Of a stretch of DNA of 51,595 nucleotides, positions 8,876 through 40,272 are shown piece after piece. Under the pieces are notes generated by a model. That model searched no databases. It was not told the origin of the DNA and saw only the letters and a list, made by a program, of their open reading frames with translations. The stretch is taken from assembly GCA_947626095.1 (NCBI GenBank), contig CANQQV010000011.1, positions 1-51,595 of the forward strand. Direction: 5' to 3'. The position numbers were made by a program, and so were the translations under genes. How positions within the stretch are numbered: the first letter of the stretch is position 1; every line of letters starts with the position of its first letter. Source of the stretch: an uncultured Bacilli bacterium. GTDB lineage: Bacteria > Bacillota_I > Bacilli_A > RF39 > UBA660.

Positions 8876-9690
8876 TATTTAATAATTTATCGTTAATTGA
8901 AAATAAGAATACTAAGCAAGAAGTTAAGTATTTAGATAATGTATCATTAACAATTAATGAAGGTAGTATAGTTGGTATAGCTGGTGAAAATTTAAGTTTT
9001 ATAAGTAATTTATTAATGGTTAGTAAAAGACCAAGTAAGGGTGAATTAAAGTTAGATGATTTAGTAATTAAAAGAACAAGTCATATTAATAATGTTAATA
9101 TGTTAAGAAAGAGAATTGGCGTTTTAGAAAGTAAGAATAACTTTATAACTAAGTCGGTTAAAGAAGAGATAGAGTTAGTTATGAAGAACTTTGAATATAA
9201 AGCTAAAGAAGATAATCAACACATTGTTGACTCTTTAAAGATAGCTGGATTAAATGAAGAGTATTTAGATATAAATCCGAATGAACTTTCTTATACAGAG
9301 AAGAAAAAGCTTAGTTTGGCTTGTTTACTTTCTTATAATCCAGAGGTAATAATTTTAGAAGATTTTTATAAAGGATTTATTTATCGAGAAAGAGAATATT
9401 ATAAAAAGTTATTCTTAAAATTAAAAAATAAATTTAAGAAAACAATTATTATCTTAGGTAATGATTTAACGTTTATGTTTAATCTTGTTGATAATTTATA
9501 TGTTATTAACAAGGGAGAAGTAGTTGTTAATGGAGACAAACAAGTCTTTTATAATGATGAATTATATAAATATTTAGAAATGCCTAAGATAGTAGAATTT
9601 ACCAAATATGCGCAAAGTAAAGGACATAAAATATTAGAATACACTGATTTAAAAGAACTTATAAAGGAATTGTATCGTAATGTTAAATAA
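8866..9690 (+). CDS. ecfA2: ECF transporter ATPase A2, Walker A lost
   Basis: LDNVSL.I.EG..VGI.G, P.ELS..EKK, L.YNPEVIIL; P-loop replaced by GENLSFIS. Confidence 0.72.
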   Translation: MEIVFNNLSLIENKNTKQEVKYLDNVSLTINEGSIVGIAGENLSFISNLLMVSKRPSKGELKLDDLVIKRTSHINNVNMLRKRIGVLESKNNFITKSVKEEIELVMKNFEYKAKEDNQHIVDSLKIAGLNEEYLDINPNELSYTEKKKLSLACLLSYNPEVIILEDFYKGFIYREREYYKKLFLKLKNKFKKTIIILGNDLTFMFNLVDNLYVINKGEVVVNGDKQVFYNDELYKYLEMPKIVEFTKYAQSKGHKILEYTDLKELIKELYRNVK

Positions 9691-10426
9691 TTTAGATTAT
9701 ACATATAATGATGAAGATTCAATAGTTCATAGGATTAATCCATTACTTAAGTTTATAGGTTTATTTATCTATATATTAGTATGTTTATTTAAATATGATA
9801 ATGTCTTATTTATATTAAATCTTAGCTTAGTATTTATACTAATCTTACTTAGTAATGTTAGTATTTTAAGATATTTAAAGGTTGTATGGAAGTTAAAGTA
9901 TTTAATTATAGTATTATATTTTATGTTATATCATTATGGACAATCGATAAGTGATATAAATATAATAGTATTTAAATTAGTATTTTTCTTCTTATATATA
10001 GCTATAATTGTTTATACAACGACTAAAGAAGATATAGGTAAAGGTTTAGCTAAGGGACTTAATATATTTAATTTAATAGGGATTAATCTTAAAAAGATAT
10101 CATCATTTTTTACCAATATAATTACTTTTATTATTAATTATATTGATAGAATGAAAGAATTAATTAACAGTGGAGAAAATAAGGGGATAGACTATTCTCA
10201 TTCTAATATTTTAAATAAAATTAAGTTAGTATTTACTAATTTAAGAAGAGTGTATAAAGATTGTAAAAGTAAAATGAGATTAAGAAAAAGTGATATGAAG
10301 TATAAGTTATATAATGGTAATATAATAAGTAAATATAAGTATCGAACTAAATTAGTTATATTTGATTATGCGTATATATTTATGAATATTGGTTTAATTA
10401 TATACTATGTATTGAAGGTGAGATAA
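9680..10426 (+). CDS. ecfT: ECF transmembrane component T, divergent
   Basis: DS.VHRINP..K N-terminal motif, TM helices, YTTT; synteny. Confidence 0.75.
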   Translation: MLNNLDYTYNDEDSIVHRINPLLKFIGLFIYILVCLFKYDNVLFILNLSLVFILILLSNVSILRYLKVVWKLKYLIIVLYFMLYHYGQSISDINIIVFKLVFFFLYIAIIVYTTTKEDIGKGLAKGLNIFNLIGINLKKISSFFTNIITFIINYIDRMKELINSGENKGIDYSHSNILNKIKLVFTNLRRVYKDCKSKMRLRKSDMKYKLYNGNIISKYKYRTKLVIFDYAYIFMNIGLIIYYVLKVR

Positions 10427-13213: not shown

Positions 13214-13858
13214 ATGAAAAAGAAAATATTATGGATGTTGATATGTTTGTTTTTATTAACAACTAGTTTAGTTTATGGAAAAGATATTAATAATCAGTTG
13301 GTGGGAAACGTTATTATTTTAGATATTGGACATGGTGGTAAAGATAAGGGAACATCAGTAAATGGGATTCTTGAAAGTGATATTAATTTAAAGATAGGAT
13401 TGAAACTTAGAAGCGAATTAGTTAAACAAGGTGTTGAGGTAATAATGACAAGAGATGGTGATTATGATTTAAGTAGTCCTGATGCTGATAGAAGAAAGAA
13501 AAGTGATTTTGATAATCGGATTAATTTAATTAATAGTAGTAAGGCAGATTTATATATTAGTATTCATATGAATTATTTAGAAGATAAAAGATATTATGGA
13601 GCGCAAGTTTTTTATACTGATGGTAATGATGAATTAGCTAAAGTAATGCAAGAAGCTTTTAAAAATAATTTAAATAGTCCAAGAACTGAAAAGAAGTTAT
13701 CAAATAGTATTTATATGTATAAAAATTTAAGGATACCAGGTATATTAATTGAATGTGGTTTTTTATCGAACGATAAAGAGAGAAAGTTACTTAATAGTGT
13801 AGAATATCAAGATAAAGTTGTTAAATCTATTATAGATGGAATTTTAAGTTATTATTAA
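13214..13858 (+). CDS. cwlD: N-acetylmuramoyl-L-alanine amidase (Amidase_3), CwlD-like
   Basis: Signal peptide, ILD.GHGG.D.G, E..INL, RKK.D...R, SIHMN, GAQVFY, LIECGFLSN; lies near rpsI as cwlD does in Bacilli. Confidence 0.8.
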   Translation: MKKKILWMLICLFLLTTSLVYGKDINNQLVGNVIILDIGHGGKDKGTSVNGILESDINLKIGLKLRSELVKQGVEVIMTRDGDYDLSSPDADRRKKSDFDNRINLINSSKADLYISIHMNYLEDKRYYGAQVFYTDGNDELAKVMQEAFKNNLNSPRTEKKLSNSIYMYKNLRIPGILIECGFLSNDKERKLLNSVEYQDKVVKSIIDGILSYY

Positions 13859-14952: not shown

Positions 14953-15891
14953 GTGATGCTTGTGATAAAGACCTTTAAAACTATTGATGAACAAATTGAT
15001 ATTTTGAAAAGTAAAGGTTTAGTAATAGATGATATAGATTATGCTAAAGATGTTTTACTTAGAGAAAATTATTTCTTTATTAGCGGCTATAGACATTTAT
15101 TTTTAAAATCACCTAAAGATAGAATGTTTATTCCTGGTACTAATTTTAAAGAGTTATATGCCTTATTTAATTTTGATAGGCAAATAAGAAATATATTTTT
15201 TAAGAATATATTAATTGTTGAAAATAATGCGAAAAGTATATTTTCTTATCAATTATCGAAAAAATATGGTATTAAAGAAAAAGACTATTTAAATCCATCT
15301 AATTTTGATCGTTCTAACGATAAAGTAAGGCAAGTTAATGATTTACTTAAAAAGATTAAAAGACAGATAAGAGTAAATGGTGGTCAGCATTCAGCAACAA
15401 TGCACTATATTAGTAATTATGGATACGTTCCATTTTGGGTAGTTGTTAAGGTTTTATCTTTTGGTTTAATATCAGAATTATATACGATAATGAAAAAAGA
15501 GGACCAAAGAGATATTGCTGGGGTGTATAATATATCAGTAGATGATTTATTGGTTTATTTACCGATATTAGCCAATTTTAGAAATTTATGTGCTCACGAA
15601 GATATTATGTATGATCATAAAACTCAAAGAATGATTGATGATACTAAATATCATGCTTTTCTAAATATTGAAAAGACTGATGGTGAGTATATATATGGTA
15701 AAGATGATTTGTTTACTCTAGTAATAATCTTGAAGCAATTACTTAGAGAAGAAGATTTTACTTTGTTAATAAATGAGTTATCATATGAATTAGATATCTT
15801 GGGTGGTAAATTAAGTTCAATAAGTTTAGAAAAAGTACTGGATGCGATGGGATTCCCTAGTACATTTAGAGAGATTGCGAGGATAGATTAA
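14953..15891 (+). CDS. Abi family (Abi_2, AbiD/AbiF-like) HEPN protein
   Basis: FKT..EQI..L...GL, NY...SGY, LF.FDR..R, P.WV....LSFG, RNLCAH (RxxxxH). Confidence 0.88.
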   Translation: MMLVIKTFKTIDEQIDILKSKGLVIDDIDYAKDVLLRENYFFISGYRHLFLKSPKDRMFIPGTNFKELYALFNFDRQIRNIFFKNILIVENNAKSIFSYQLSKKYGIKEKDYLNPSNFDRSNDKVRQVNDLLKKIKRQIRVNGGQHSATMHYISNYGYVPFWVVVKVLSFGLISELYTIMKKEDQRDIAGVYNISVDDLLVYLPILANFRNLCAHEDIMYDHKTQRMIDDTKYHAFLNIEKTDGEYIYGKDDLFTLVIILKQLLREEDFTLLINELSYELDILGGKLSSISLEKVLDAMGFPSTFREIARID

Positions 15892-18423: not shown

Positions 18424-18483
18424 AAATGCTAATGTTTTTATTCTTTTTATATGCTATAATTAATTAGAATAGAGGTGCAATTT

Positions 18484-19908
18484 ATGGCGTCATCAATAAA
18501 TATTAGTAGTAAAAATGAGTTAGTATCTTTAGCATCTCAACTTGATTCTAAAAAAAACGATATAAAGAGTGCAGCTGAGAATTTGAAAAGTAAATTAAAA
18601 AATATAAGTAATTATGATGGTATAGATGTTGCTAGTGCTGGTAATGTACTGGCTAGTAATATAGATAATATATTTATGGATTTGAATGCAGTATCCAGCA
18701 ATATTACGAATTATTCAACATCGGTTATGGATTTTGATGTTGATGACTTTAATAATGTCGAAACTTATTTGGCTGAAGAATCAGGAAATGCAATTGCGTT
18801 ACCTGGAGGATTGGGTAGTGTTCATTCATATATGGGATGGCAATGTATTACCGATACTTCATCTAATCAATATAAGTTAAGAACAGAAGCTGGGATGAAT
18901 TTCGATGAACAAGGTTTTGGTAAGATAGGGGATAGATATGTAGTAGCAACAACTACTACTTTTGGTAATGTTGGTGATTACATAGATGTTGTTCAAGAAG
19001 ATGGAACAGTTATTAAATGTATTATTGGCGATATAAAAAATCAAAATGATGCAGGTTGTAATAAATGGGGTCATGATAATGGACAATGTGTTGTAGAGTT
19101 TGTTGTAGATAAATCGTCTTGGTATGGAACAAATAAAACAGTAGTAGGATATCATCCTGAATGGAATAAAAATATTAGTAAAATAGTTAATAAAGGTAGT
19201 TACTTTAATTTAAAGAATCAATATGATACTTCTACAGCAAAGAGTAATTCTAGTGGTGGTCAAAAACAAAATTCTTATAGTTGGTCTACATTAAGTACAG
19301 CTAGTAGTGCTGCTTCTTCAGTAGTACATTATAGTAGTAATAGTAAGAGTGGTTCATCTAGTAGTGGATATACTTATACATATTCGGTTGGTAGTAATAG
19401 TAGTTCAGTTAGTAATTTAAGTAGTAATAGTAGTCCAGTAGGTACAACACCTGTTACAATTACTTCGGGAGATCCTAATATAGATGTTAGTAAATATCAT
19501 AATAATTTAGATAAAGGGTTTGAAGTTACTGTAGGTAATTTGGCTTATGAAGTTAGTGATGAGGATTATGAATTATTATGTGCAATAGTTGCAGCTGAAA
19601 GTGATAAATCATATGATGATGCATTAGCTGTTATTACGACTATTTTAAATAGATGTGAAGCTCCTAATTGGGTTAGAAGTCATGGAACTAATCCTGTAGC
19701 ACAAGCGACTGCACCTAATCAATTTGTTGTTTATCAACATGGAAGTTATAAGGCTTATATGAATGGTAGGGCACCAGAGACTGTTCAAACAGCTGTTAAG
19801 GATGCTTTAGCAGGAGTAAGAAATCATCATTATCTATCATTTAGATCTAATGGAACTACAAGCTATAGTGATAATAAAATAACTAATACAGGTAATAGAT
19901 ATAAGTAG
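18484..19908 (+). CDS. Putative T7SS-type cargo: WXG100-like N-terminus + 3D/DPBB-like domain + Ser-rich linker + SleB-like (Hydrolase_2) cell wall hydrolase
   Basis: No signal peptide; helical hairpin of about 90 aa with a YDG turn ending FDVDD; YMGW.CIT...QY.L...RYVVA...GD.K...VVEFVVD; LL.AIV.AES...AV...ILNR...PNQF. Confidence 0.7.
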   Translation: MASSINISSKNELVSLASQLDSKKNDIKSAAENLKSKLKNISNYDGIDVASAGNVLASNIDNIFMDLNAVSSNITNYSTSVMDFDVDDFNNVETYLAEESGNAIALPGGLGSVHSYMGWQCITDTSSNQYKLRTEAGMNFDEQGFGKIGDRYVVATTTTFGNVGDYIDVVQEDGTVIKCIIGDIKNQNDAGCNKWGHDNGQCVVEFVVDKSSWYGTNKTVVGYHPEWNKNISKIVNKGSYFNLKNQYDTSTAKSNSSGGQKQNSYSWSTLSTASSAASSVVHYSSNSKSGSSSSGYTYTYSVGSNSSSVSNLSSNSSPVGTTPVTITSGDPNIDVSKYHNNLDKGFEVTVGNLAYEVSDEDYELLCAIVAAESDKSYDDALAVITTILNRCEAPNWVRSHGTNPVAQATAPNQFVVYQHGSYKAYMNGRAPETVQTAVKDALAGVRNHHYLSFRSNGTTSYSDNKITNTGNRYK

Positions 19909-21365
19909 GGAGGTAATAAATTTATGGCAACAGATATTAAGGATAAGAATGAATTAGTTGCTTTAGCTACTAAATTAGAAGAACAAGCTAAGAGTATAAA
20001 GGGTGATGGTGAAAGTTTAAAAGAAAAAATGTCATCATTAGAAAATTATGATGGTATAAATGTTGCAGGATCTGGTCAAACATTAGCTAGTAATATGGAT
20101 AATATTATTGCTGATTTAGATGCTGTTTCTAGTAATATAAAAAATTTTGCCATTTCAATTGTCGGTTTTGATGTTGATGATTTTAGTTCTTTAGCAAATA
20201 GTGAAAGTAGTAAGATGTCATATGAAGATTTATTTAAGACTGATGGTACTGTAAATGGTAATGCGCAAGTTATTTGGAATTTCTTTAAATATAAAGGTTT
20301 ATCTGATGCAGCTGTTGCTGGTATTTTAGGTAATATTCAAGCTGAAAGTAATTTTGATCCTGGAGTAGTTGAAGCTAAAACAGGTGAAGGTTATGGCCTT
20401 ATACAGTGGAGTTTTGATAGAAGAACAGCATTAGAAGCAGCAGCTCGTGAAAGAGGAGTAGATCCTAGTAATTTACAATTTCAACTTGAATACTTGTGGG
20501 AAGAAGCTGTTGATCCTAATTCATCTTATGGTAAAGATTTAGCAAAAGCAGGTTTTTATGATACTGATAGTCCATCTGATGCGGCTTATTATTTTCATAA
20601 TATTGTTGAAGGATCAAATGATAGTGAAGAAGCTATTAGAAATAATCGTTGTCAAACAGCTCAACAATGGTATAACCAATTAAAAGGAACAAGTGCTGGT
20701 GAAGTTGGTGAGGCTGTTGCAACTGGAAAAGTAAATGGTTTAACACCATTAGTAAATACAGCTTCGGTAGTTGGAGCAGCACGTAGTACATCATCTGGAG
20801 GATATAGTTCTTCATCTAGTTATAGTTCTTATACACCTGCAAGTTATGGAACACCTAGTTTTCCTAGGTCAACTGCTAATCGTAATGTTAAAATTGCGAA
20901 TGTTGATTATGAAAAATTAGAAGAATATTTAGAGGAAGTTAAAGGAACATCAGTTAAATTACCAGGTGGATTAGGTAGTAAACATACATATATGGGATGG
21001 CAATGTATAACAGCGCGTAGTTCTGATCAGTATAAACTTATTGAGTCAGCTGGAATGAACTTTGATGAACAAGGTTTTGGTAAAATAGGAGATAGATATG
21101 TTGTAGCAACAACAACAACTTTTGGTAATGTTGGCGATTTTATTGATGTTGTTCAAGAAGATGGAACAGTTATTAAATGTATTATTGGCGATATTAAGAG
21201 TCAGGGAGATGCAAATTGTAATAAGTGGGGACATAGTAATGGAGTAGATGTTGTTGAATTCGTTGTAGATAAATCTTCTTGGTATGGATCTAGTAATTCA
21301 GTTGTTAAGTTTCATCCTGAATGGAATAAAAATATAGACACAATTATTAATAAGGGTAATTATTT
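18800..21365 (+). repeat. Duplicated domain-coding segment (about 18800-19205 and 20960-21365, offset 2160)
   Basis: Highly similar DNA, including an identical 50-mer at 18985-19034 and 21145-21194. Confidence 0.9.
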
Positions 21366-21405
21366 TGACTTGGCGCAAAAGTATCCTAAAACAGTAGATA
21401 TTTAG
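19924..21405 (+). CDS. Putative T7SS-type cargo: WXG100-like N-terminus + phage-tail-type lysozyme + Ser-rich linker + 3D/DPBB-like domain
   Basis: N-terminus paralogous to the preceding gene; IW.FF...GLS..A.AGILGN.QAES.F.P...GYGLIQW...R...L...QL.YL (Phage_lysozyme2 pattern). Confidence 0.75.
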   Translation: MATDIKDKNELVALATKLEEQAKSIKGDGESLKEKMSSLENYDGINVAGSGQTLASNMDNIIADLDAVSSNIKNFAISIVGFDVDDFSSLANSESSKMSYEDLFKTDGTVNGNAQVIWNFFKYKGLSDAAVAGILGNIQAESNFDPGVVEAKTGEGYGLIQWSFDRRTALEAAARERGVDPSNLQFQLEYLWEEAVDPNSSYGKDLAKAGFYDTDSPSDAAYYFHNIVEGSNDSEEAIRNNRCQTAQQWYNQLKGTSAGEVGEAVATGKVNGLTPLVNTASVVGAARSTSSGGYSSSSSYSSYTPASYGTPSFPRSTANRNVKIANVDYEKLEEYLEEVKGTSVKLPGGLGSKHTYMGWQCITARSSDQYKLIESAGMNFDEQGFGKIGDRYVVATTTTFGNVGDFIDVVQEDGTVIKCIIGDIKSQGDANCNKWGHSNGVDVVEFVVDKSSWYGSSNSVVKFHPEWNKNIDTIINKGNYFDLAQKYPKTVDI

Positions 21406-21489
21406 TAAAAAAGTTTACACCTTTTTAAAAAAAGTAAAAATTATTAAATCAAAAATGATATAATGAAGTTAATAGAGGGAGGTCGTCGT

Positions 21490-21798
21490 ATGGGAGTTGT
21501 TACTCATAATACAGAATCAATGAGAGCTTGGTCTGGAAATATTACAAATTCAGCAAATGAATATAAAGATTATATTAGTTCTTTATATAATTTAGTTGAT
21601 ACTTTAGTTTCAGCTGATTTTACTGGAGGTTTATCAAAAGATTTTGAAAGTTCAGTATTAGATAAAAGAGATGATTTTAATAGATTAGGAGAAGTTCTAG
21701 ATGAATGTGCTGACTTAATTACTAAAACTTCAAATTCTATTGATAATGACGAAGCTGAGTTAAAAGCTCGTATTGAAAGTCATAATTCATTTAATTAA
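21490..21798 (+). CDS. WXG100/ESAT-6-like protein (central FTG)
   Basis: 102 aa, helix-turn-helix with central L...DFTG; RBS GAGGGAGG favours ATG 21490. Confidence 0.7.
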   Translation: MGVVTHNTESMRAWSGNITNSANEYKDYISSLYNLVDTLVSADFTGGLSKDFESSVLDKRDDFNRLGEVLDECADLITKTSNSIDNDEAELKARIESHNSFN

Positions 21799-21813
21799 GG
21801 AGGTTATTAATAT

Positions 21814-22095
21814 ATGGCAGATGGAGTATTAAAAATTGAAACCGGTGAAGCGAGAGCTAAAGCTGAACAAATGAAATCTTTAGCTAATAATATTGAAGCT
21901 TTACTAAATGATGTTGATGCTAAAATGCAAGAAATAAATGATGAAGAAGTTGGAACTTATCAAGGACAATATAAGCCTAGTGAACTAAGACAACAATTAG
22001 ATGAGTATAGAGCTACTTTTTATAAGTTTCATGAACAAATTAATTTGTTTGCAAATGATGTAATTGCAACAGCAGAAACAATGTTATCTGAATAA
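21814..22095 (+). CDS. WXG100-like protein (central YQG)
   Basis: 93 aa, MA...LKI.....R..A..M N-terminus, two amphipathic helices. Confidence 0.65.
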   Translation: MADGVLKIETGEARAKAEQMKSLANNIEALLNDVDAKMQEINDEEVGTYQGQYKPSELRQQLDEYRATFYKFHEQINLFANDVIATAETMLSE

Positions 22096-22153
22096 TAAAA
22101 AATTACTTTTTATAACTTAGTTATAAAAAGATTTTTTTCTAGGAGATGAAACT

Positions 22154-22447
22154 ATGGGAGATTCTTATAAATATGTACCAGAAGGTGTATCAGTAACAAT
22201 TTCTGGTTTGAAAGAAGTTATAGATGATTATCGTGAACGAATAGCTGAATTGACTTCTTTAATTAGTGAAATATCTAGTTCTGGATCTTGGAAGGATGTA
22301 CAAGTAAAAAATTCTTTTTTAAGTACGGCTAACTCATATATTGCTTTGTATAAAACTGTTTTAAGTAATATGGAGAAATATGTTAATTATTTAACTAAAA
22401 AAGCAGAAAGTGCTAGTGCATTAGAAGATGCATTTTCTAGAGGGTAG
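22154..22447 (+). CDS. WXG100-like protein (central WKD)
   Basis: 97 aa, central SGSWKD....F, two helices. Confidence 0.6.
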   Translation: MGDSYKYVPEGVSVTISGLKEVIDDYRERIAELTSLISEISSSGSWKDVQVKNSFLSTANSYIALYKTVLSNMEKYVNYLTKKAESASALEDAFSRG

Positions 22448-22454
22448 GTAAATT

Positions 22455-22718
22455 ATGGATACATCAGTTTATATTGATACAGCTGCTTTAGAAGCTTGGA
22501 GTGCTAGAATGGCAACTATTAATGAAGCAGCAATTAGTGATTTAAGTAACTTTATTAATAAAGCTAATGAATTAGATGGATCATTTGAAGGTACTTCAGC
22601 TTCAGCGTTTTTATCATCAACTAGTGGTTTTATTAATTTGGCGAAAAATGGACATCTTAAAATGTCTAATGTTAAAAACTTCTTAATTGAAGTTGCTAAT
22701 GTAATGGAGAACGAGTAA
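22455..22718 (+). CDS. WXG100-like protein (central FEG)
   Basis: 87 aa, V.ID.A.L...A..M, L..SFEG.SA.AF. Confidence 0.7.
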   Translation: MDTSVYIDTAALEAWSARMATINEAAISDLSNFINKANELDGSFEGTSASAFLSSTSGFINLAKNGHLKMSNVKNFLIEVANVMENE

Positions 22719-22798
22719 TTTACAATGGATGAAGTCTTTTATAAGACTTTTTTTTGTTTTGTGATATAATAAATTTAAGAATAAAGTGGGTGGAAATA

Positions 22799-26663: not shown

Positions 26664-27254
26664 ATGGTATTAACTAGTGAAATTGCTAAGAATTATTTGA
26701 TTAATTATGCTAATAAAACTACTAAGTTATCAAGAGAAGTAAAAAATAATCGATTATTTAGAATTATAAATGGTTTATATGAAACTAATGCTAATGTTCC
26801 AGGATATTTGTTAGCTTCTAGTATTTATGGTCCTTCTTATATTTCGTTTGAATATGCCTTATCTTATTATGGATTAATACCAGAAAGAGTAACTACTATT
26901 ACTTGTGCTACTTTTGATAAGAAAAAAAAGAAGGAATATAAAACAGATTTTGGTGTATTTACTTATAGAGATGTTCCATCATTGGCTTATCCTGAAGAAA
27001 TAATTTTAAAAGAAGAAGATAATTATTCATATCAGATAGCAACACCCGAAAAAGCTCTATGTGATAAATTGTATACTTTACCTCCTTTATTTAATTTTTC
27101 CAATTTAGAAAATATGTTGTTTAATGACTTGAGAATAGATGAAGAAACTTTTAATAATTTAGATGAAGAAAAAGTTTATAAATTAAGTAGATTATATCAT
27201 TCTACAAATGTTGATTTATTGGCTAGATATATGAGGAGGAATAAAAATGAATAA
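26664..27254 (+). CDS. abiEi: Type IV TA antitoxin, AbiEi-like
   Basis: L.RI..GLY, PSYISFE.ALSYYGLIPE, IATPEKAL.D. Confidence 0.88.
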   Translation: MVLTSEIAKNYLINYANKTTKLSREVKNNRLFRIINGLYETNANVPGYLLASSIYGPSYISFEYALSYYGLIPERVTTITCATFDKKKKKEYKTDFGVFTYRDVPSLAYPEEIILKEEDNYSYQIATPEKALCDKLYTLPPLFNFSNLENMLFNDLRIDEETFNNLDEEKVYKLSRLYHSTNVDLLARYMRRNKNE

Positions 27255-28107
27255 TATTATTGAACAAATGTTAAGTAAGTATGAAATAAAAAATTTGAAT
27301 GATGAAATAAATGCCTTAAAGGAAATTATTCAGGAGATAGTTCTAGCTGGTTTATCAAGAGGGAACTTTTTTAATGAAGCTGCTTTTTATGGTGGAACAT
27401 CTTTAAGAATATTTTATAATTTAGATAGATTTTCTGAAGATTTGGACTTTGCGTTAATAAAACCAAATAAAGATTTTGATTTGAGTAAATATTTTCCTTA
27501 TATCGAAAAAGAATTAAAGGCTTATGGTATTAAATTAGAGATAACAATCAAAAATAAAAATATTGATTCTAATATTACGTCTGCGTTTTTAAAAGGAGAT
27601 ACATTAGAACATATCTTAAAATTTTTCCCAAGTGAAGAAGATCATACTTATAATCATATATTAAAAGATTTAAAGATTAAATTTGAAGTAGATATTAATC
27701 CTCCTACTGGGGCAACTTTTGAAGATAAATATAAATTATTACCAAGTCCTCATCAAATTAAATTATATGATAAAGAATCATTATTAGCGGGTAAGATTCA
27801 TGCTATTTTATGTAGAGGGTGGAAGTCAAGAACAAAAGGACGAGATTTATATGATTATGTTTTCTTTTTAGCTAATGATACAAAAGTTAATTTAGAATTA
27901 TTAAAAAATAAATTAATTGAATCTGATTATATTAAACCTAGTGATCTTTTTGATATAGGAAAGTTAAAAGAATTGTTAATAAATAAATTTAATGAAATTG
28001 ATTATAATGATGCTAAGGAAGATGTTAAACCTTTTATTAGAAATGTAGATAGTATTGAGATTTGGAGTAAAGAATTCTTTATTAGTATTACAGATAAACT
28101 TATTTAA
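27247..28107 (+). CDS. abiEii: Type IV TA toxin, AbiEii nucleotidyltransferase
   Basis: FYGGTSLR..Y.L.RFSEDLDF, K..A...R...RDLYD. Confidence 0.92.
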   Translation: MNNIIEQMLSKYEIKNLNDEINALKEIIQEIVLAGLSRGNFFNEAAFYGGTSLRIFYNLDRFSEDLDFALIKPNKDFDLSKYFPYIEKELKAYGIKLEITIKNKNIDSNITSAFLKGDTLEHILKFFPSEEDHTYNHILKDLKIKFEVDINPPTGATFEDKYKLLPSPHQIKLYDKESLLAGKIHAILCRGWKSRTKGRDLYDYVFFLANDTKVNLELLKNKLIESDYIKPSDLFDIGKLKELLINKFNEIDYNDAKEDVKPFIRNVDSIEIWSKEFFISITDKLI

Positions 28108-28151: not shown

Positions 28152-28415
28152 TTACTCTTTTTTATACATATCTACGCGTTTAGGTAGTTTTTTAGCTTTT
28201 ATAGCTGTGCTTTCTTCAAATAGTAGAATTGGTTTAATATTTAATGATTTGGCGATTAAATCAATGTTTTTGCAAGTTAAATTGGCATATCCATTTTCGA
28301 TGGTACTTATGTAAGCCATTTTAAATTTTGTTTTATTAGCAAATTGTTCTTGAGTAATATTATTTTGATATCTATACCATTTTGTATTAAGACCAATTAA
28401 TTCCATCGAATTCAT
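28152..28415 (-). CDS. Small XRE-family HTH regulator
   Basis: ITQEQFA......YIS.IENG..N.T...I..IA..L. Confidence 0.85.
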   Translation of the reverse strand: MNSMELIGLNTKWYRYQNNITQEQFANKTKFKMAYISTIENGYANLTCKNIDLIAKSLNIKPILLFEESTAIKAKKLPKRVDMYKKE

Positions 28416-29622: not shown

Positions 29623-29781
29623 TTAATTTATTTGGTGATGACAATAACAAATGATTTATATGAGATTATCAGAAATGATAGTCTTTTTATTTTATTTAAA
29701 TCAGATTTAAATTTTTATATATGAATTTCTTTTTAGTGTCTAAATAGTTTTTTTGTCATAGATTATAATGAGGTGAAAACT

Positions 29782-30987
29782 ATGAAGAAAGTGGTTTTAG
29801 ATAGTGGTCATGGTGGCATCGACAAAGGATCTTCAGGTAATGGAATTATTGAAAAAGAATATACTTTAAAGATATCAGAATATATTCATAAAAGATTAGA
29901 TGAGTTAGGAATAGAAAATACAATGGTGAGAACTACTGATGAAACTATTGAACCTAATGATCGTGTTAAAAGAATATTAGATATATATGGTAATAATAAA
30001 GATGTTATTGTCCTTAGTAACCATATTAATGCTGGTGGAGGACAGGGTTCAGAGATTATCTATGCTTTAAGAAATAGTGATGCTTTAAGTAAAAGAATAG
30101 CTACTGAATTAGAAAATAATGGAAGAGATGTAAGAAAGTATTATCAAAGAAGATATCCATCAGATTCAAGTAAAGATTACTATTTTATACATCGTAATAC
30201 TGGTAATACAGAAGCTATTATAGTAGAATATGGTTTTTTAGATAATAGTACAGATGCTGAGTTACTAAAGAAATATTGGGAAGATTATGCAGAAGCGGTT
30301 GTTAAAGCGATAGCTGGTTATATTGGAGTACCATATAGTTTTACAGGGGAATCTGCTAATGAAAACTATTATATTGTTAAAAAAGGTGATAGTTTATGGA
30401 GTATTGCTAATAAATTTGGATTAACTGTGGAAAAGTTAAAAGATATGAACAACTTAGCTAGTAACATAATATCAGTTGGACAGAGATTGCTTGTAAAAGA
30501 TACTAGTTCAAGTAGTGATGTAGGAGTTTATTATACAGTTAAATCAGGTGATACATTATATGGCATAGCTAAACAATATGGCTTAACAGTTGATGAACTT
30601 AAGAAGATGAATAATCTAACTTCGAATAATTTAACGATTAATCAGAAATTACTAGTTAGTGGAACAGGCGATAATAGTTCTAATAGTGATTATGATACTT
30701 ATATAGTTAAGAGTGGAGATAGTTTATGGAGTATAGCTAGTAAATATGGAACAACTGTGGATAATTTAAAAGATATTAACAACTTAAATAGTGATTTATT
30801 AAGTATTGGACAAAAGTTATTATTGCCTAAGAGTAGTAGCGGATCAAGTAAAACTTATGTTGTAAAAGCTGGAGATACATTATATCAGATAGCAAGAAAA
30901 TATGGAACGACAGTAACGGATATTATTAATTTAAATGATATAAAAACAACTAATTTAAGTATTGGACAGGAATTATTAATACCTTAG
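29782..30987 (+). CDS. Amidase_3 + four LysM domains, no signal peptide
   Basis: LD.GHGG.D, S.H.NAG, I.E.GF; four Y.VK.GD.L..IA repeats. Confidence 0.93.
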   Translation: MKKVVLDSGHGGIDKGSSGNGIIEKEYTLKISEYIHKRLDELGIENTMVRTTDETIEPNDRVKRILDIYGNNKDVIVLSNHINAGGGQGSEIIYALRNSDALSKRIATELENNGRDVRKYYQRRYPSDSSKDYYFIHRNTGNTEAIIVEYGFLDNSTDAELLKKYWEDYAEAVVKAIAGYIGVPYSFTGESANENYYIVKKGDSLWSIANKFGLTVEKLKDMNNLASNIISVGQRLLVKDTSSSSDVGVYYTVKSGDTLYGIAKQYGLTVDELKKMNNLTSNNLTINQKLLVSGTGDNSSNSDYDTYIVKSGDSLWSIASKYGTTVDNLKDINNLNSDLLSIGQKLLLPKSSSGSSKTYVVKAGDTLYQIARKYGTTVTDIINLNDIKTTNLSIGQELLIP

Positions 30988-35986: not shown

Positions 35987-36011
35987 ATATCTTAAGTTAG
36001 AGGTGGATGTT

Positions 36012-36797
36012 ATGAAAATAAAATTTAATATCAATGGTTTAATTGGTAAGAGAGGTGTGGCTTTAGCTTTAGCAGTTATTAGTGCAACTACATTATCTGG
36101 TTGTGGAAAGAAAGCTGATTGTGATATAAGTAGTAATCATCTCCATAAATATGTTAATACCGAAGGATATATAAGATATATAGATAAAGAGTATTTAAAA
36201 TATGAAGGATATGAATGGACTTCTGATTATGTAGAAGCTACTAAAGAAGATATTGAAACAAGAGAATTAATGGATAAAAAAGATTTATTACGTATTGATG
36301 AAAACTTAGAAACAATTCAAAATATGCAGCAAGCTAATTCTGATTTTTTAGAATATCGTTATTCTTATATCTTTTTACAACCGATTCCTCATATGTTTTC
36401 TAATGGTAAGACAACATATACAATGTTTACTTATATTCCCGTAACCCATTATTCGTGGACTAGTGATAGTGAACATTCAAATTTAACTGGTGAAAAAAGA
36501 TTATGCCATTATATGTATAGAGCTTATAAAATAGAAATAGATGAAAAAGGTAAAGAGGTATTAATACCTAGTGATTATATAGATGATATAACTAAAGTTA
36601 TGGATGAGTATCCTTATATTAAAAAAGATTATTATAAGATATTTAATGCAGAGCTTAATTGTGAAGCTGATTATGAGGATGGTCCAGAAGAAGAATTAAG
36701 TGATGAAGAAAGAGAAAAGAGAGATTCTAATATAGATCCTTCATATAATAGTTCATCTATTAATAATAAGGGAATGAAGCTTACGCTTACGAAATAA
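36012..36797 (+). CDS. Hypothetical lipoprotein under riboswitch control
   Basis: Lipobox LSGC after a basic/hydrophobic leader; RBS GAGGTG; no family recognised. Confidence 0.8.
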   Translation: MKIKFNINGLIGKRGVALALAVISATTLSGCGKKADCDISSNHLHKYVNTEGYIRYIDKEYLKYEGYEWTSDYVEATKEDIETRELMDKKDLLRIDENLETIQNMQQANSDFLEYRYSYIFLQPIPHMFSNGKTTYTMFTYIPVTHYSWTSDSEHSNLTGEKRLCHYMYRAYKIEIDEKGKEVLIPSDYIDDITKVMDEYPYIKKDYYKIFNAELNCEADYEDGPEEELSDEEREKRDSNIDPSYNSSSINNKGMKLTLTK

Positions 36798-36897
36798 AAG
36801 AAATGTCAATTTTTTATAAAGAAATTAGACATTTCTTTTTTATTGTTTTGAGGTAATATTAATTATGTTATAATTTTGATAATAGGGAGGACTATTT

Positions 36898-38466
36898 ATG
36901 AGCACGGGATTAATTAAAAATAATGGTTATTCTTACTATATTCCTGATGAAGTTGACGATTCAACAACAGCATTTATTTATTATCCTGGTTCTGGTGGTG
37001 CGGGGAATGATGCGGCAGTATTAAGAAATATCATTCAATCTAATCCTAATCAAATTATTATAATTGCTGATACTGCTTATCAAAATATAAATCAAGCTAG
37101 TGATACTTATTTTAACTTGATTAAACAAATTGGTGATGATAATGGTGCTAATATCTCCAATATTGTTACGATGGGATTTAGTGCTGGAGGACCAAATACT
37201 TTTAATGGATTAATGAGAAATATAAATGATCATCCAGATGCTGGACCTCAAACAGCAGTTTTTGTTGATGTGGTTCAACATAATGGCTTTTATGGTGCGG
37301 TAAATAGCGAAAGTATTGAGACATTAAAAAATAACGAGGCTACCTTATTATTCTTTGAACCTAATGGAACTATTGAAGAAACAGAAAAAACATTAGCAGC
37401 AAATGGAGTTGACGTAATAGTTGCTTGGACATCTGGTAATCATAGTACACATATTAATTTAAATAAAGAAGCTTTCCAAAATGGAATAGTTGATTTAACA
37501 AGTGCCAATATTGAAGAACTAGCTAATAGTGATATATATACTTTTGTTAAATATAATCCGAATACTGGTAAATGGGATCAGATTTCAATGGATGAAGTAT
37601 CTGCTAAATTTGCTGATTTATCTATAGATCCTAATGATCCTTTTAGATATTATAAAAAATTAGGTAATTTAAAAGAGTTACAATGTAATAATGAGTTTAT
37701 TGGTTCGAAAATAAATAATATTAGAAATGCGATAAAAAATACTAACTTTTTAGCTAGTACTAGTTTAGATTCTTATAGTAGTACAACGAATATTCCTAAT
37801 GGTGAAACAGAGATAATTCAAAGTTATTTTACGGCTTGTTCAGAACTACTTAGTTATCTTGAAAAAGATACGGTTAAAATAATTCAAATTGGTAATTCGA
37901 TAAAAGATTTAAATACTTCATTAACAAATGAAGCTAATGACTTAAATAATAGTGTTTCTTATTATAATAATAACAGTTCTAATGTTGGTAATAATAATAC
38001 TTATTATAATGGTAATAATTATAGTATTGGTAATAGTAATTTTGTTAATGGTGTTACAGGAGCAACAGTTGTTGGAGTAGGAACTAATATTATTGAACAG
38101 ATGACAACAGCTGAAAAAGAAGAAAAAATTAAAGAAATTAAAAAAGAATTCTTAAAATATGATGAATTGTATTCAGATGATGAAAAAATTGTTTATCAAA
38201 AAGATGATGATTATAAAATTGTTGTTCATTATGCGGGAGATGAAATACTTACTTTAGAATATTATTTTAAATATAAAAATGAGGAAGAAGCTAAGGAAGC
38301 AATTAAGGCACTAAAGACTAAATTCGAAGGTGTTGAAGATGTTGTTCGTGATGGAAAATATGCTAAAGTAATTTTTGATAAAGATGTATATAAAGGTTTA
38401 ACATTAGATGAATTAAAAGATATGTATAAAGATTTAAAAGAATTAGTAAAGGAGGAAGATAAATAG
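36898..38466 (+). CDS. N-terminal alpha/beta-hydrolase + helical (WXG/LXG-like) segment + Asn-rich linker + C-terminal domain
   Basis: YYPGSGG oxyanion-like loop, GFSAGG nucleophile elbow, downstream His residues; no signal peptide. Confidence 0.65.
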   Translation: MSTGLIKNNGYSYYIPDEVDDSTTAFIYYPGSGGAGNDAAVLRNIIQSNPNQIIIIADTAYQNINQASDTYFNLIKQIGDDNGANISNIVTMGFSAGGPNTFNGLMRNINDHPDAGPQTAVFVDVVQHNGFYGAVNSESIETLKNNEATLLFFEPNGTIEETEKTLAANGVDVIVAWTSGNHSTHINLNKEAFQNGIVDLTSANIEELANSDIYTFVKYNPNTGKWDQISMDEVSAKFADLSIDPNDPFRYYKKLGNLKELQCNNEFIGSKINNIRNAIKNTNFLASTSLDSYSSTTNIPNGETEIIQSYFTACSELLSYLEKDTVKIIQIGNSIKDLNTSLTNEANDLNNSVSYYNNNSSNVGNNNTYYNGNNYSIGNSNFVNGVTGATVVGVGTNIIEQMTTAEKEEKIKEIKKEFLKYDELYSDDEKIVYQKDDDYKIVVHYAGDEILTLEYYFKYKNEEEAKEAIKALKTKFEGVEDVVRDGKYAKVIFDKDVYKGLTLDELKDMYKDLKELVKEEDK

Positions 38467-39050
38467 TGGCGATACTTATTAAAAGTGATTTGGTTGAAGC
38501 TAATTCCTCTAAATTGGTATCTAGTTTAGAAAAAGATAAAGAAGATACTGAGGCTTTAATTAGTGTTATAGAGGACTTTATTGATTCTTCTAAGGAGGTA
38601 CTTGTTGGTGATTCTTTTGAAGCTGTTAGGAATCATTTACAAGAATATATTAATCTATTACAAACAAGGTTAAAAATAGCTGATTCATTGTTTACAGCCG
38701 TTAATAATGCTAATCAAACAATGATTGATTATATGGGAACTGAAGATAAGATAGATTCTAGTAGTATTGATACATTAAAACAACAATTATCATTAGTTAC
38801 GACTAATTATGATGACGCTGTTACAAGAATAAATAAATATGATGCTGATAGAGAATGGGAATCATTAGATACTTTATGTAATAGAAGAGATTCGTTAGAA
38901 CAAGAAATTAATAGTTTAAAAGTTAAAATTGATTTAGCTACAAATTTAGAAGCTAAAGATACTAGTACTTATTCAACTTTCTTACAATCAGAAGTAGAAA
39001 TAACTAACTTTAAAAATGGCGTTGGAGGAATAAAAACGATTAGTATATAA
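38466..39050 (+). CDS. Stand-alone LXG-domain-like helical protein
   Basis: I..FI.....LVG.SFEA....L, M..Y.G....ID, coiled coil; GTG start overlaps the upstream stop. Confidence 0.6.
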   Translation: MAILIKSDLVEANSSKLVSSLEKDKEDTEALISVIEDFIDSSKEVLVGDSFEAVRNHLQEYINLLQTRLKIADSLFTAVNNANQTMIDYMGTEDKIDSSSIDTLKQQLSLVTTNYDDAVTRINKYDADREWESLDTLCNRRDSLEQEINSLKVKIDLATNLEAKDTSTYSTFLQSEVEITNFKNGVGGIKTISI

Positions 39051-39128
39051 GTGTTAAGTTTTAATGCTTTAACTTGGAAAATACTTTAAATATTGATATA
39101 CTTTATTTATATAGGAGGGTAGATTAAA

Positions 39129-39437
39129 ATGTCTGGAGATATTTTTGGAGCACATACTGGAGCATTAGCAGAAGGTTCACAAAGAATTATGAATGTTGCT
39201 AATGATTTTAAAAATGAATATGAAAAAATGTTTTTAGTAGTTGATTCCTTAGTAGGTAGTGAATGGTCAAGTCCAGCAGCTACAGCAGTAGCTAATAAAA
39301 TAGTTGAACAAAGACCTAATCTAGAAGCAATGTATAAAGCTATTTGCAGTTATTCTGAATATTGTGGAAGAGCAGCTAATAAAATAGAAGAAAATGAAGA
39401 AAACATCGTTACGGGAGTAGGTGGTTATAATGGCTGA
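39129..39437 (+). CDS. WXG100-like protein (central WSS)
   Basis: 102 aa; L....WSS.AA; C-terminal Y...C..AA...EE.E..I. Confidence 0.75.
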   Translation: MSGDIFGAHTGALAEGSQRIMNVANDFKNEYEKMFLVVDSLVGSEWSSPAATAVANKIVEQRPNLEAMYKAICSYSEYCGRAANKIEENEENIVTGVGGYNG

Positions 39438-39741
39438 TACAAGTATTAAATTTAGTAGTGTAGAAACAGCTGTTAATGAATTAACTACTGGTAGAAATAA
39501 TATGGAATCTACTTTAGATGAATTTGCTAATATTATTAGAACTTTAATTGCTAATGGTGATTTAGTAGGTACAGCAGCTGATACATTTGAACAAAGCTTT
39601 GAGGATTTAAAGAAACAAAAATTTGAATCTTATATTGCTTTAGTTCAAGAATTTGCTGAAGTTATTTCTAAAGCTGGACAAGCTACTCATGCAACTGCTC
39701 AAGCATTAGAAGCAGATGCCAATCAAACTTTATATCATTAA
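39430..39741 (+). CDS. WXG100-like protein (central LVG)
   Basis: 103 aa; LVG.AAD.F...F..LK. Confidence 0.7.
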   Translation: MADTSIKFSSVETAVNELTTGRNNMESTLDEFANIIRTLIANGDLVGTAADTFEQSFEDLKKQKFESYIALVQEFAEVISKAGQATHATAQALEADANQTLYH

Positions 39742-39745
39742 TAAT

Positions 39746-39770
39746 AGGACCTACGGGTCTTTTCTTTTTT
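39746..39770 (+). terminator. Intrinsic terminator after the WXG100-like pair
   Basis: AGGACC-TACG-GGTCTT plus T tract. Confidence 0.8.
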
Positions 39771-39802
39771 ACATATCTTTTTAACAAAATGTTAAAAAGG
39801 TG

Positions 39803-39841
39803 TTGACTTTTATAATTGTTATTAATATAATGTTAATAACA
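39803..39841 (+). promoter_or_regulatory. SigA promoter of the nadD operon with overlapping 25-bp palindrome
   Basis: TTGACT(39803)-N17-TATAAT(39826); TGTTATTAA-N7-TTAATAACA at 39817-39841. Confidence 0.8.
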
Positions 39842-39855
39842 GGAAGTGATATAAA

Positions 39856-40272
39856 ATGGAAGTAAGTTTTACTAAAGAAGAAACACTTAAATTAATAGAG
39901 GAGTATTATAAGAAATTAGAGGGAAAAACAGTACATGCTCAAGCTAAAGCAACAAGAGGATTAGTTGGATATTATGAAGATGAGGGGTGTATAACAGAAA
40001 TAACTGTTAGTGAGCAAATGGAAATTGCTGGACTTAATAAAGAAGTAAAAGAAGAAATTACGCCAGATAAGCTAAGAACTTTACTTAAAGCTTTATTTGG
40101 TCTTTATGAATTTGAAGTTCTTGATGTATCTTTAAATGATGGTTTAAATTCACGATGGGAAGGCTACGGAATGGCAGAACATGAAGTAAAAACTGCTTAT
40201 TTTAAAGGTATGACATTAAATATTCAAAAGAAAAAAGATTATGGTTTAAATATGTCCTATGGAAATAAATAG
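39856..40272 (+). CDS. Hypothetical protein, lead gene of the nadD-pncC-nadK operon
   Basis: 138-aa ORF with RBS, 18 nt before the nadD ORF; weak internal duplication. Confidence 0.8.
   Translation: MEVSFTKEETLKLIEEYYKKLEGKTVHAQAKATRGLVGYYEDEGCITEITVSEQMEIAGLNKEVKEEITPDKLRTLLKALFGLYEFEVLDVSLNDGLNSRWEGYGMAEHEVKTAYFKGMTLNIQKKKDYGLNMSYGNK

Follow-up and report, generated by a model that had tools for sequence, protein, structure and literature searches.

A putative type VII secretion module of hairpin-tagged peptidoglycan hydrolases and WXG100-superfamily proteins in an uncultured Bacilli bacterium

In this work, we have used sequence comparison to analyse a six-gene module, P1-P2-S1-S2-S3-S4, which starts 60 nt 3' of rimO in a 51,595-nt stretch of DNA from an uncultured Bacilli bacterium of the RF39 lineage (contig CANQQV010000011.1; the whole stretch is called the window below). 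The module joins two multi-domain proteins related to peptidoglycan hydrolases, P1 and P2, with four small proteins, S1 to S4, that resemble the WXG100 proteins of type VII secretion systems (T7SS). P1 and P2 share an N-terminal helical hairpin and a further domain, here called X, and by our profile searches these are two sequence families without a Pfam or NCBIfam model. We propose that P1 and P2 are exported by type VII secretion via the hairpin, with WXG100 partners, and we put the chance that this is right at about even.

An earlier note on this DNA had described P1 and P2 as adjacent signal-less genes with a common helical N-terminus of about 90 aa, a YDG turn and an FDVDD(F) end, and all these features are present in both proteins (Table 1). 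No hydrophobic segment occurs in P1, P2 or S1-S4 (maximum Kyte-Doolittle mean over 19 residues <1.0), and none of these six proteins has a signal peptide or a transmembrane segment. In BLASTP comparisons, the two N-termini are identical at 46 of 87 positions (53%, E 4e-26) and the two copies of domain X at 114 of 147 (78%, E 1e-83; P1 residues 104-250, P2 341-487), where X directly follows the hairpin in P1 and is C-terminal in P2. This duplication is also seen at the DNA level, over 300 nt at 83% and 142 nt at 74%. An in-frame GTG at 18475 lies upstream of the ATG of P1; homologues begin at the equivalent Met.

The lysozyme domain of P2 scores 119.3 bits against Phage_lysozyme2 (PF18013; cut-off 28.2, E 1.8e-34) and matches the lysozyme domain of phi29 gp13 (PDB 3csq_A) at E 6.4e-9, GNIQAES of P2 aligning with GNMQSES of gp13, a conserved Glu-containing motif; these matches place P2 in the phi29 gp13-type Phage_lysozyme2 family. 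P1 reaches 25.3 bits against Hydrolase_2 (PF07486; SleB/CwlJ), just below the cut-off of 27, and for this domain neither sequence nor profile search gave a SleB match in the PDB. Its homologues P0043 and P0083 stand above the cut-off (28.4 and 27.4 bits) and nine homologues are listed with a precomputed PF07486 assignment, which suggests that P1 ends in a divergent SleB/Hydrolase_2 domain. The claim of two wall-lytic domains in each protein thus stands for the P2 lysozyme, narrowly misses the family cut-off in P1 and, for domain X, depends on homology with phage tail lysins (see below).

The small proteins had also been called WXG100-like, and this is borne out. Taken singly, S1, S2 and S4 match PF06013 at E 2.5e-4, 1e-3 and 4.8e-5 (19.7-24.0 bits, cut-off 27.3), with no match for S3, and TIGR03930 at E 2.3e-5, 6.9e-3 and 3.5e-3; the orthologue of S4 in the related locus L001 reaches 27.0 bits against the PF06013 cut-off of 27.3. 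A joint profile of 14 sequences (S1-S4 with their orthologues, plus two other small proteins encoded in the window) finds S. aureus EsxA in the PDB over its full length (2vrz, E 1.8e-9, 4-95 vs 4-93; 2vs0, E 2.2e-9), as well as Geobacillus EsxA (3zbh, E 3.3e-7) and an EsxB (4j42, E 2.3e-5), EsxA and EsxB filling nine of the 13 top PDB rows. S3, whose family has only 11 relatives in a set of 5.8 billion proteins, joins the other small proteins at 96.1% in hhalign (E 3.3e-9; reversed decoy 2.8%). None of the four has a literal W-x-G, and their turn aligns with NWEGQA of EsxA. These profiles, together with lengths of 87-102 aa, place all of S1-S4 among the WXG100/ESAT-6-superfamily hairpins, with atypical sequence. 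For S1, a longer open reading frame (ORF) from 21463 would overlap the promoter and the ribosome-binding site.

The same arrangement after rimO is found in two other contigs of uncultured Bacilli bacteria, L001 (CANPXB010000012.1) and L002 (CANRNY010000026.1), two loci out of 427 pattern matches to a four-sequence hairpin query. Pairwise dN/dS (omega) among the three genomes is 0.23-0.26 for P1, 0.24-0.25 for P2 and 0.10-0.42 for S1-S4, and the dS of the module resembles that of rimO and htrA, and all six genes are under purifying selection. By domain, omega is 0.03-0.06 in the SleB-like part, 0.07-0.22 in X, 0.30-0.37 in the hairpin and 0.66-0.92, nearly neutral, in the P1 linker; the SleB-like domain of P1 keeps 94-97% aa identity, compared with 88-91% in RimO. 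The extended -10 elements TGCTATAAT and TGATATAAT, ahead of P1 and S1, are each identical in the window, L001 and L002, and both would be sigma-A-like, vegetative-looking promoters rather than sigma-E/K/G sites. Synteny, purifying selection and conserved elements together indicate that the six-gene module is real, far beyond chance.

Both related loci also contain, after S4, an extra gene of about 340 codons (L001 14256-15284, L002 7922-8944) for a third hydrolase, with a helical N-terminus bearing F-D-G-T-W-S-G and a C-terminal NlpC/P60 domain (24.0 bits in L002, cut-off 23). It has no counterpart between 22718 and 22754 of the window, where only a terminator-like hairpin is present. Furthermore, the longest-contig sizes 33162, 26115 and 8349 are common to homologues of S3 and homologues of P1/P2, a hint that P1/P2 and S3 are adjacent on three further contigs.

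Table 1. Genes, domains and control elements of the module, with positions in the window
Feature	Position	Strand	Description
P1	18484-19908	+	474 aa, ATG start; hairpin - domain X - Ser-rich linker - SleB/Hydrolase_2-like domain
P1 N-terminal helical-hairpin domain	18484-18759	+	residues 1-92; YDG turn 44-46, Y77, FDVDDF 84-89
P1 domain X	18775-19233	+	about residues 98-250
P1 Ser-rich linker	19234-19485	+	33% Ser
P1 C-terminal SleB/CwlJ-type Hydrolase_2-like domain	19486-19905	+	weak profile match
P2	19924-21405	+	493 aa; hairpin - phage tail lysozyme domain - linker - domain X
P2 N-terminal helical-hairpin domain	19924-20199	+	residues 1-92
P2 Phage_lysozyme2 domain	20260-20682	+	residues 113-253
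P2 domain X	20944-21384	+	residues 341-487
S1	21490-21798	+	102 aa, WXG100-superfamily hairpin, F-T-G turn
S2	21814-22095	+	93 aa, WXG100-superfamily hairpin, Y-Q-G turn
S3	22154-22447	+	97 aa, divergent WXG100-superfamily hairpin, invariant W46 at turn (W-K-D)
S4	22455-22718	+	87 aa, WXG100-superfamily hairpin, F-E-G turn
Extended -10 promoter-like element TGCTATAAT	18452-18460	+	24 nt upstream of P1 start codon, in rimO-P1 gap
Extended -10 promoter-like element TGATATAAT	21456-21464	+	ahead of S1
Terminator-like hairpin and U-run	22731-22758	+	after S4; -10.2 kcal/mol, z -2.99

The hairpin family and domain X

Each hairpin has Gly or Pro only centrally (in the first 100 aa of P1, at 46 and 53). 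An exhaustive search with a two-sequence profile against 1.84 billion representatives gave a hairpin family of 85 representative proteins at E<=1e-3, 35 of them at E<=1e-10 (a word-indexed search gave only 3 proteins), and by these searches the family is new and unannotated. At E<=1e-3, Pfam assigns Phage_lysozyme2 to ten of the 85 and Hydrolase_2 to nine (one with both), Peptidase_C39_2 to two, and CHAP and CW_7 to one each; five matches are unrelated or spurious, and 59 representatives have no Pfam family. Pfam found no nuclease, deaminase, ADP-ribosyltransferase or pore-forming toxin domain on any of them. We also took a census of 201 retrieved proteins with hidden Markov models (HMMs) of our own at E<=1e-5. 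Writing N for the hairpin and Lyz for the lysozyme, the architectures were N-X (67), N alone (55), N-X-SleB (27), N-Lyz-X (16), N-SleB (12), X alone (12) and, more rarely, N-Lyz (5), N-Lyz-SleB (2), N-Lyz-Lyz (1) or none (4), the SleB-like domain occurring in 41 proteins.

In 185 of 187 members the hairpin starts no later than residue 30, and the C-termini vary, so that it behaves as the constant, targeting-type module that had been suggested. Its most conserved positions are K10, L13, D45, D66, N73, Y77 and D85 (141-174 of 187). The best signature is [YF]77 with D85 (173/187), and at least two acidic residues stand at positions 85, 87 and 88 in 171 members; YDG itself is found in 71. An FxxxD-type export motif had been brought up as well: P1 and P2 do have F84-D-V-D-D88, and only 57 of the 187 members share it, for which reason FxxxD was rejected as the motif that defines the family.

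Domain X has at least 556 clusters of relatives (90% identity) at E<=1e-3, the best 120 listed being 64-87% identical. It had been labelled 3D/DPBB-like, a label that found no sequence support, as there was no Pfam match at E<=5, to the 3D, RlpA and DPBB models or to any other, no PHROG and, with a seven-sequence profile, no PDB match. One homologue is named by NCBI, from Candidatus Coprovivens sp., a genus assigned to order RF39, family CAG-1000 (PMC8035907). The hairpin is present in 104 of 116 listed X proteins. Only three have an N-terminal transmembrane-like segment, all three without the hairpin and two with CHAP; other hairpin-less X proteins have a different helical N-terminus and LysM. 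In two X proteins the first ~350 residues match a 522-aa protein from a second module of the window (49% identity for P0114), and P0114 carries domain X in place of the C-terminal domain of that protein.

In tblastn, domain X was also found in three phage records, L003 (MW679025.1), L004 (MT835642.1) and L005 (MT837655.1). The 'tail lysin' of Eggerthella phage LE1-1, a phi29-like podovirus, has X at its N-terminus before NlpC/P60 (44-45% identity, E 1e-27 and 2e-28), a large metagenomic phage protein has it at the C-terminus, with an M23-type peptidase motif at the start that was seen by eye and not by HMM, and in a third protein it follows a signal-peptide-like N-terminus. Bacterial and phage copies share invariant Y33, K34, D44, G85-D86-x-K88 and E108 (numbering of window 18775-19240). 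Domain X thus appears to be an unannotated lysin module, which likely is catalytic, is directed at murein and acts outside the cell.

Proposed export by type VII secretion and its alternatives

We propose that P1 and P2 would be made in the cytoplasm as multi-domain peptidoglycan-cleaving enzymes without Sec signals, the ~90-aa hairpin serving as the export tag. This hairpin is marked by the Y44-D45-G46 turn, by Y77, which is conserved, by D85 with a hydrophobic residue before it, and by its acidic end. Alone, or packed with at least one of S1-S4 in a helical bundle, the hairpin would be the recognition signal, and the bundle would be recognised by a type VII-type (EssC/TsxC-driven) system encoded elsewhere in the genome. 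Outside the cell, flexible Ser-rich linkers would allow the lysozyme, SleB-like and X domains to cleave murein at glycan or peptide bonds. In this scheme, the pairing of hairpin and partner, the dependence on T7SS, the export itself, the catalysis by X and the target wall are what we infer. What the sequences themselves show are the gene models, the domain homologies, the place of S1-S4 in the WXG100 superfamily, the lack of signal peptides, the architecture across the family and the purifying selection.

Several observations argue for export. P1 and P2 have no signal, although the catalytic domains to which theirs are homologous act on murein. The hairpin keeps a constant place at the N-terminus, joined to wall-lytic or unassigned domains only, and on X-domain proteins hairpin and hydrophobic N-terminus are mutually exclusive. 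S1-S4 belong to the WXG100 superfamily, and the hairpin HMM, run over the 175 window frames of at least 50 aa, finds besides P1 and P2 only S3 at E<0.01 (E 1.2e-4), a further frame, 9665-10423, following at E 0.019. In hhalign, the hairpin aligns with the mixed small-protein alignment A5 at 58-68% (reversed decoys 0.6-3.3%), and it is possibly a remote relative of the WXG100-like hairpins. The synteny with a third hydrolase in L001 and L002, and the second WXG100 module of the window, point in the same direction. That the exporter would be a T7SS is suggested by a published pattern, in which T7SS substrates typically have one or two genes for small WXG100-related partners next to them (PMC11217815), Lap1 carries at the end of helix 2 an FxxxD needed for export (PMC9600955), and LXG, Lap1 and Lap2 form one helical bundle (PMC10801868). 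The NlpC/P60 gene of the related loci, the second module and the exchange of X between carriers point to a WXG100-based system in the organism.

Other results weigh against this proposal. Genes for EssC/TsxC, EsaA, EssB or YukD-like proteins are absent from the window, including its gap ORFs of 35-90 aa, and no EssC, EsaA, EssB or YukD-like gene was found in L001 and L002 (20 kb and 14 kb). The small proteins individually remain below the Pfam and NCBIfam cut-offs, and in the hairpin family the literal F84...D88 and the aromatic-x-G turn are limited to 57 and 81 of 187 members. The N-terminus had been taken for a WXG100/LXG-type domain, and this found no support: the window hairpins have no match to the WXG100, LXG (PF04740) or DUF3130/TIGR04197 models at E<=5 / E<=1, and the hhalign values of the hairpin with the small proteins spread over 4.5-68%, according to the alignment compared. 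Among 16 hairpin members (alignment A3), none matches WXG100, and LXG, ESAT6_2 and TIGR04197 are each matched by one (E 0.026, 0.0028 and 0.12). The hhalign result is also unstable, since it falls to 4.5-8% against A11, the alignment without S3, and against the S3 family (A10) it is 0.9% with A3 or 37.6% with the 187-sequence alignment. A PDB profile search with the hairpin returned only non-significant rows, a TraC/VirB5 (E 0.093) and an ESAT-6-like protein (E 0.16), and the family is known from metagenomic proteins only. Moreover, EssH, a wall hydrolase that is linked to T7SS, is Sec-exported and not a T7 substrate (PMC13059805). Thus the T7SS-delivered muralytic cocktail of the earlier note keeps the WXG100 nature of the small proteins, the lack of signal peptides and the constant N-terminal module, and loses the detectable WXG100/LXG relationship of the hairpin and the sequence support for a 3D/DPBB domain.

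Could P1 and P2 leave the cell in another way? As signal-less autolysins they would use a non-type VII route (a holin-like pore, another exporter or partial lysis), the hairpin would oligomerise or tether them, and the WXG100 neighbours would be incidental. We consider this unlikely, although separate conserved extended -10 elements precede P1-P2 and S1-S4, which thus need not be a single operon, no WXG100 or LXG relationship of the hairpin is detectable, T7SS core genes are missing nearby, there is no immunity gene and the catalytic domains are strongly conserved (omega 0.03-0.22), and the loss of lyt/cwl genes in the RFN20/RF39/ML615J-28 ancestor leaves room for replacements (PMC10868615). 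Neither the module nor its immediate surroundings contain a gene for a holin-like small membrane protein, however, and such autolysins would not account for a WXG100 adjacency that is kept in three loci (window, L001, L002) with a hint of three more contigs, for the selection of S3 by the hairpin HMM, or for the W-S-G-containing third hydrolase in the cluster of the relatives. A role in sporulation or germination, with enzymes made in the mother cell, deposited on or in the spore and localised by the hairpin, seems improbable to us. P1 has a domain of the SleB/CwlJ family, CwlJ and CwlC are not known to have signal peptides, and SpoVG, YabP and a YabQ-like ORF are encoded in the window. RF39 is also predicted to sporulate (PMC10868615). 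Against this, both promoter elements would be sigma-A-like, the SleB-like domain is found in just 41 of the 201 census proteins, X and the lysozyme are of the phage tail-lysin type, and the WXG100 neighbours would be left without a role.

The phage connection of these domains raises the question of whether the module derives from a phage tail or conjugation apparatus, as a remnant or after domestication, in which case the hairpin would dock lysins on the virion or on the mating channel in the manner of VirB1 or CwlT. The lysozyme domain of P2 has matches in 478 phage records, to tape-measure or tail-lysin proteins, and in 18 plasmid records, to 'phage tail tip lysozyme', X occurs in the LE1-1 tail lysin and in the phage protein with the M23-type motif, and the best PDB row of the hairpin, non-significant, is TraC/VirB5. 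On the other hand, none of the 18 + 15 listed phage and plasmid matches to P2 starts before residue 90, hence none spans the hairpin; P1 has no plasmid match, PHROGs are matched by the lysozyme domain alone, the 51.6-kb window has no phage, integrase or type IV secretion gene, and the three genomes have the same housekeeping neighbours, with rimO upstream, and a dS similar to that of these neighbours. We thus regard a phage-tail or conjugation part as very improbable, and a prophage or integrative conjugative element origin of the module was rejected on genomic context. Hardly credible, finally, is a cytoplasmic function in which P1 and P2 process imported wall fragments, a kind of muropeptide scavenging that would need no export and would agree with the missing signal peptide and with the possible reliance of RF39-type genomes on scavenged muropeptides (PMC10868615): lysozyme, SleB-type and tail-lysin domains act on polymeric murein, some X relatives have an N-terminal membrane anchor or a signal peptide, which places X outside the cell, and the hairpin and the WXG100 neighbours would not be explained.

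What would be the role of the module if P1 and P2 were exported by type VII secretion? The earlier note had seen no interspersed immunity gene, and our analysis agrees, as no membrane, lipoprotein or small immunity-like gene occurs within or beside 18484-22718. The module differs from polymorphic toxin-immunity systems in that an adjacent immunity gene is lacking and the catalytic domains are conserved, not diversifying. We lean towards a generic wall-opening role rather than that of a strain-specific toxin, because of the lack of an immunity candidate, the conserved catalytic domains, the vegetative-looking promoters and the fixed chromosomal position in three genomes. Wall-opening could mean that the producer's own wall is cleared for the secretion apparatus or for growth, or that the walls of neighbours are breached, the hydrolases acting as helpers. 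RF39-type genomes are reported to miss steps in the making of murein precursors, seem unable to produce these de novo and may depend on scavenged muropeptides, and the RFN20/RF39/ML615J-28 ancestor lost most penicillin-binding proteins and lyt/cwl endopeptidases (PMC10868615), so that the replacement of autolysins and the harvesting of muropeptides are both conceivable. We would extend this only with much reserve to the wall-reduced RF39-like branch as a whole, where it seems doubtful that T7 murein hydrolases with their own hairpin and private WXG100 partners have replaced or supplemented Sec-exported autolysins. If true, such hydrolases would open the producer's wall, or breach those of neighbours for effector entry or muropeptide harvest; with them, a type VII system would for the first time have a wall-degrading class of cargo, and they would give a direct handle on how T7 substrates cross Gram-positive walls.

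Chromosomal setting and a second WXG100 module

The window has a G+C content of ~24-32%, and of its 59 ORFs with 90 aa or more, 53 lie on the + strand. The GC skew stays strongly positive over the whole length, at 0.15-0.50 in each 2-kb interval, and skew and strand bias are consistent with the leading strand of one replichore. Besides the sporulation-related genes named above, it encodes DivIC, L13/S9, a RimO-type radical-SAM enzyme, enzymes of NAD metabolism and a sortase; an Rfam search of the window found no family. Conventional Amidase_3 wall hydrolase genes lie at 13214-13858 and 29773-30987, the second with four LysM repeats, from which it follows that the organism has classical murein amidases too. 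An Abi_2 (abortive-infection-like) gene at 14953-15891 is 95-96% identical in the three genomes, with an omega of 0.03-0.05, and is more conserved than the adjacent rimO, which is unusual for a defence-type gene. At 26664-28107, a gene for an AbiEii nucleotidyltransferase toxin overlaps a weak AbiEi-like upstream gene, as in a type IV toxin-antitoxin pair, and a helix-turn-helix ORF follows at 28152-28415 on the opposite strand.

Directly downstream of the module, a gene at 22754/22799-24355 encodes a protein of 520-533 aa that is 72-74% identical in L001 and L002. By eye, its N-terminal part resembles leucine-rich repeats, no hydrophobic segment and no PDB match were found for it, and it has weak matches to Transglut_core (E 0.14) and, over a short stretch, to HepT-like proteins (E 1.1e-4).

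The second module with WXG100-like genes lies 14 kb downstream, at 36003-40272. It consists of genes for a lipoprotein-like protein of 264 aa, the 522-aa protein mentioned above, a 194-aa helical protein, two WXG100-like proteins (102 and 106 aa) and a protein of 138 aa. The WXG100-like pair matches PF06013 at E 3.1e-5 and 1.3e-3, and ESAT6_2 at E 2e-6. In the 522-aa protein, an esterase-like N-terminal half with GFSAGG is followed by a helical middle part and then by a separate C-terminal domain; PDB searches with it and with the 194-aa protein were empty or non-significant. An LXG domain seemed on sight to be present in the 194-aa protein ('LVGDSF') and was rejected, as Pfam, NCBIfam and hhalign gave it no support. 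In its esterase-like N-terminus, helical region and two WXG100-like genes the second module is similar to the reverse-orientation T7SS lipases TslA/TslM with Tla, and its upstream lipoprotein gene recalls the lipoprotein or membrane immunity of TslA/TslM clusters (PMC13560087). It differs from them in the extra C-terminal domain and in having no match to a solved lipase beyond the GxSxG stretch.

Comparison with known systems

The P1-P2-S1-S4 module shares with the LXG toxins and their Lap1/Lap2 partners, and with EsaD and EsxB/C/D, a helical N-terminus on a larger signal-less enzyme and small WXG100-related partner genes, as well as an acidic motif of F- or hydrophobic-xxx-D type at the end of a helix (PMC9600955, PMC10801868, PMC11217815). 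In contrast to LXG, the tag of P1 and P2 has ~90 aa instead of ~200 and is not detected by the LXG model, the motif is on the enzyme itself and not on Lap, and there is no immunity gene. The hairpin cargoes seen here are moreover wall hydrolases or unassigned domains, never nuclease- or NADase-type toxins. Wall hydrolysis has been linked to type VII secretion in S. aureus by EssH, the T7SSb-associated CHAP hydrolase, which has a Sec signal peptide and a single CHAP domain (PMC13059805), whereas P1 and P2 lack a signal and carry, besides a helical tag, two domains each. The lysozyme of P2 is homologous to the N-terminal domain of phi29 gp13, both proteins being built of two modules with a linker between them, and X stands beside NlpC/P60 in the tail lysin of a phi29-like phage; unlike phage lysins, P1 and P2 are encoded in a chromosomal housekeeping context without virion genes, and none of the listed phage and plasmid matches contains the hairpin. 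The peptidoglycan hydrolase effectors of the Tae/Tge type are also delivered by secretion, through the Gram-negative machinery of type VI secretion (T6SS), and have dedicated periplasmic immunity proteins, for which the module offers no candidate.

The passages returned by our literature searches describe no T7SS-exported peptidoglycan hydrolase and no hairpin tag of this kind. In table rows of Zhang et al. 2012, the NlpC/P60 toxin class stands under T6SS, PVC and Tc, not under T7SS (PMC3482391), and the words peptidoglycan, hydrolase and lysozyme are absent from the main text of the T7SSa-j survey. How T7SSb substrates pass the thick wall of the producer and get to targets behind the wall of the prey is treated as unresolved in two reviews (PMC10765036, PMC13492133), and EssH, which is exported by Sec, is the one T7-linked hydrolase that they describe. 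If P1 and P2 are exported, their widespread family of signal-less, hairpin-tagged murein hydrolases beside WXG100 partners would offer candidate 'wall-openers' delivered by the T7SS itself and, provided that the link with T7SS holds, would be a substrate class not described before, with a tag and a catalytic domain family that are likewise new.

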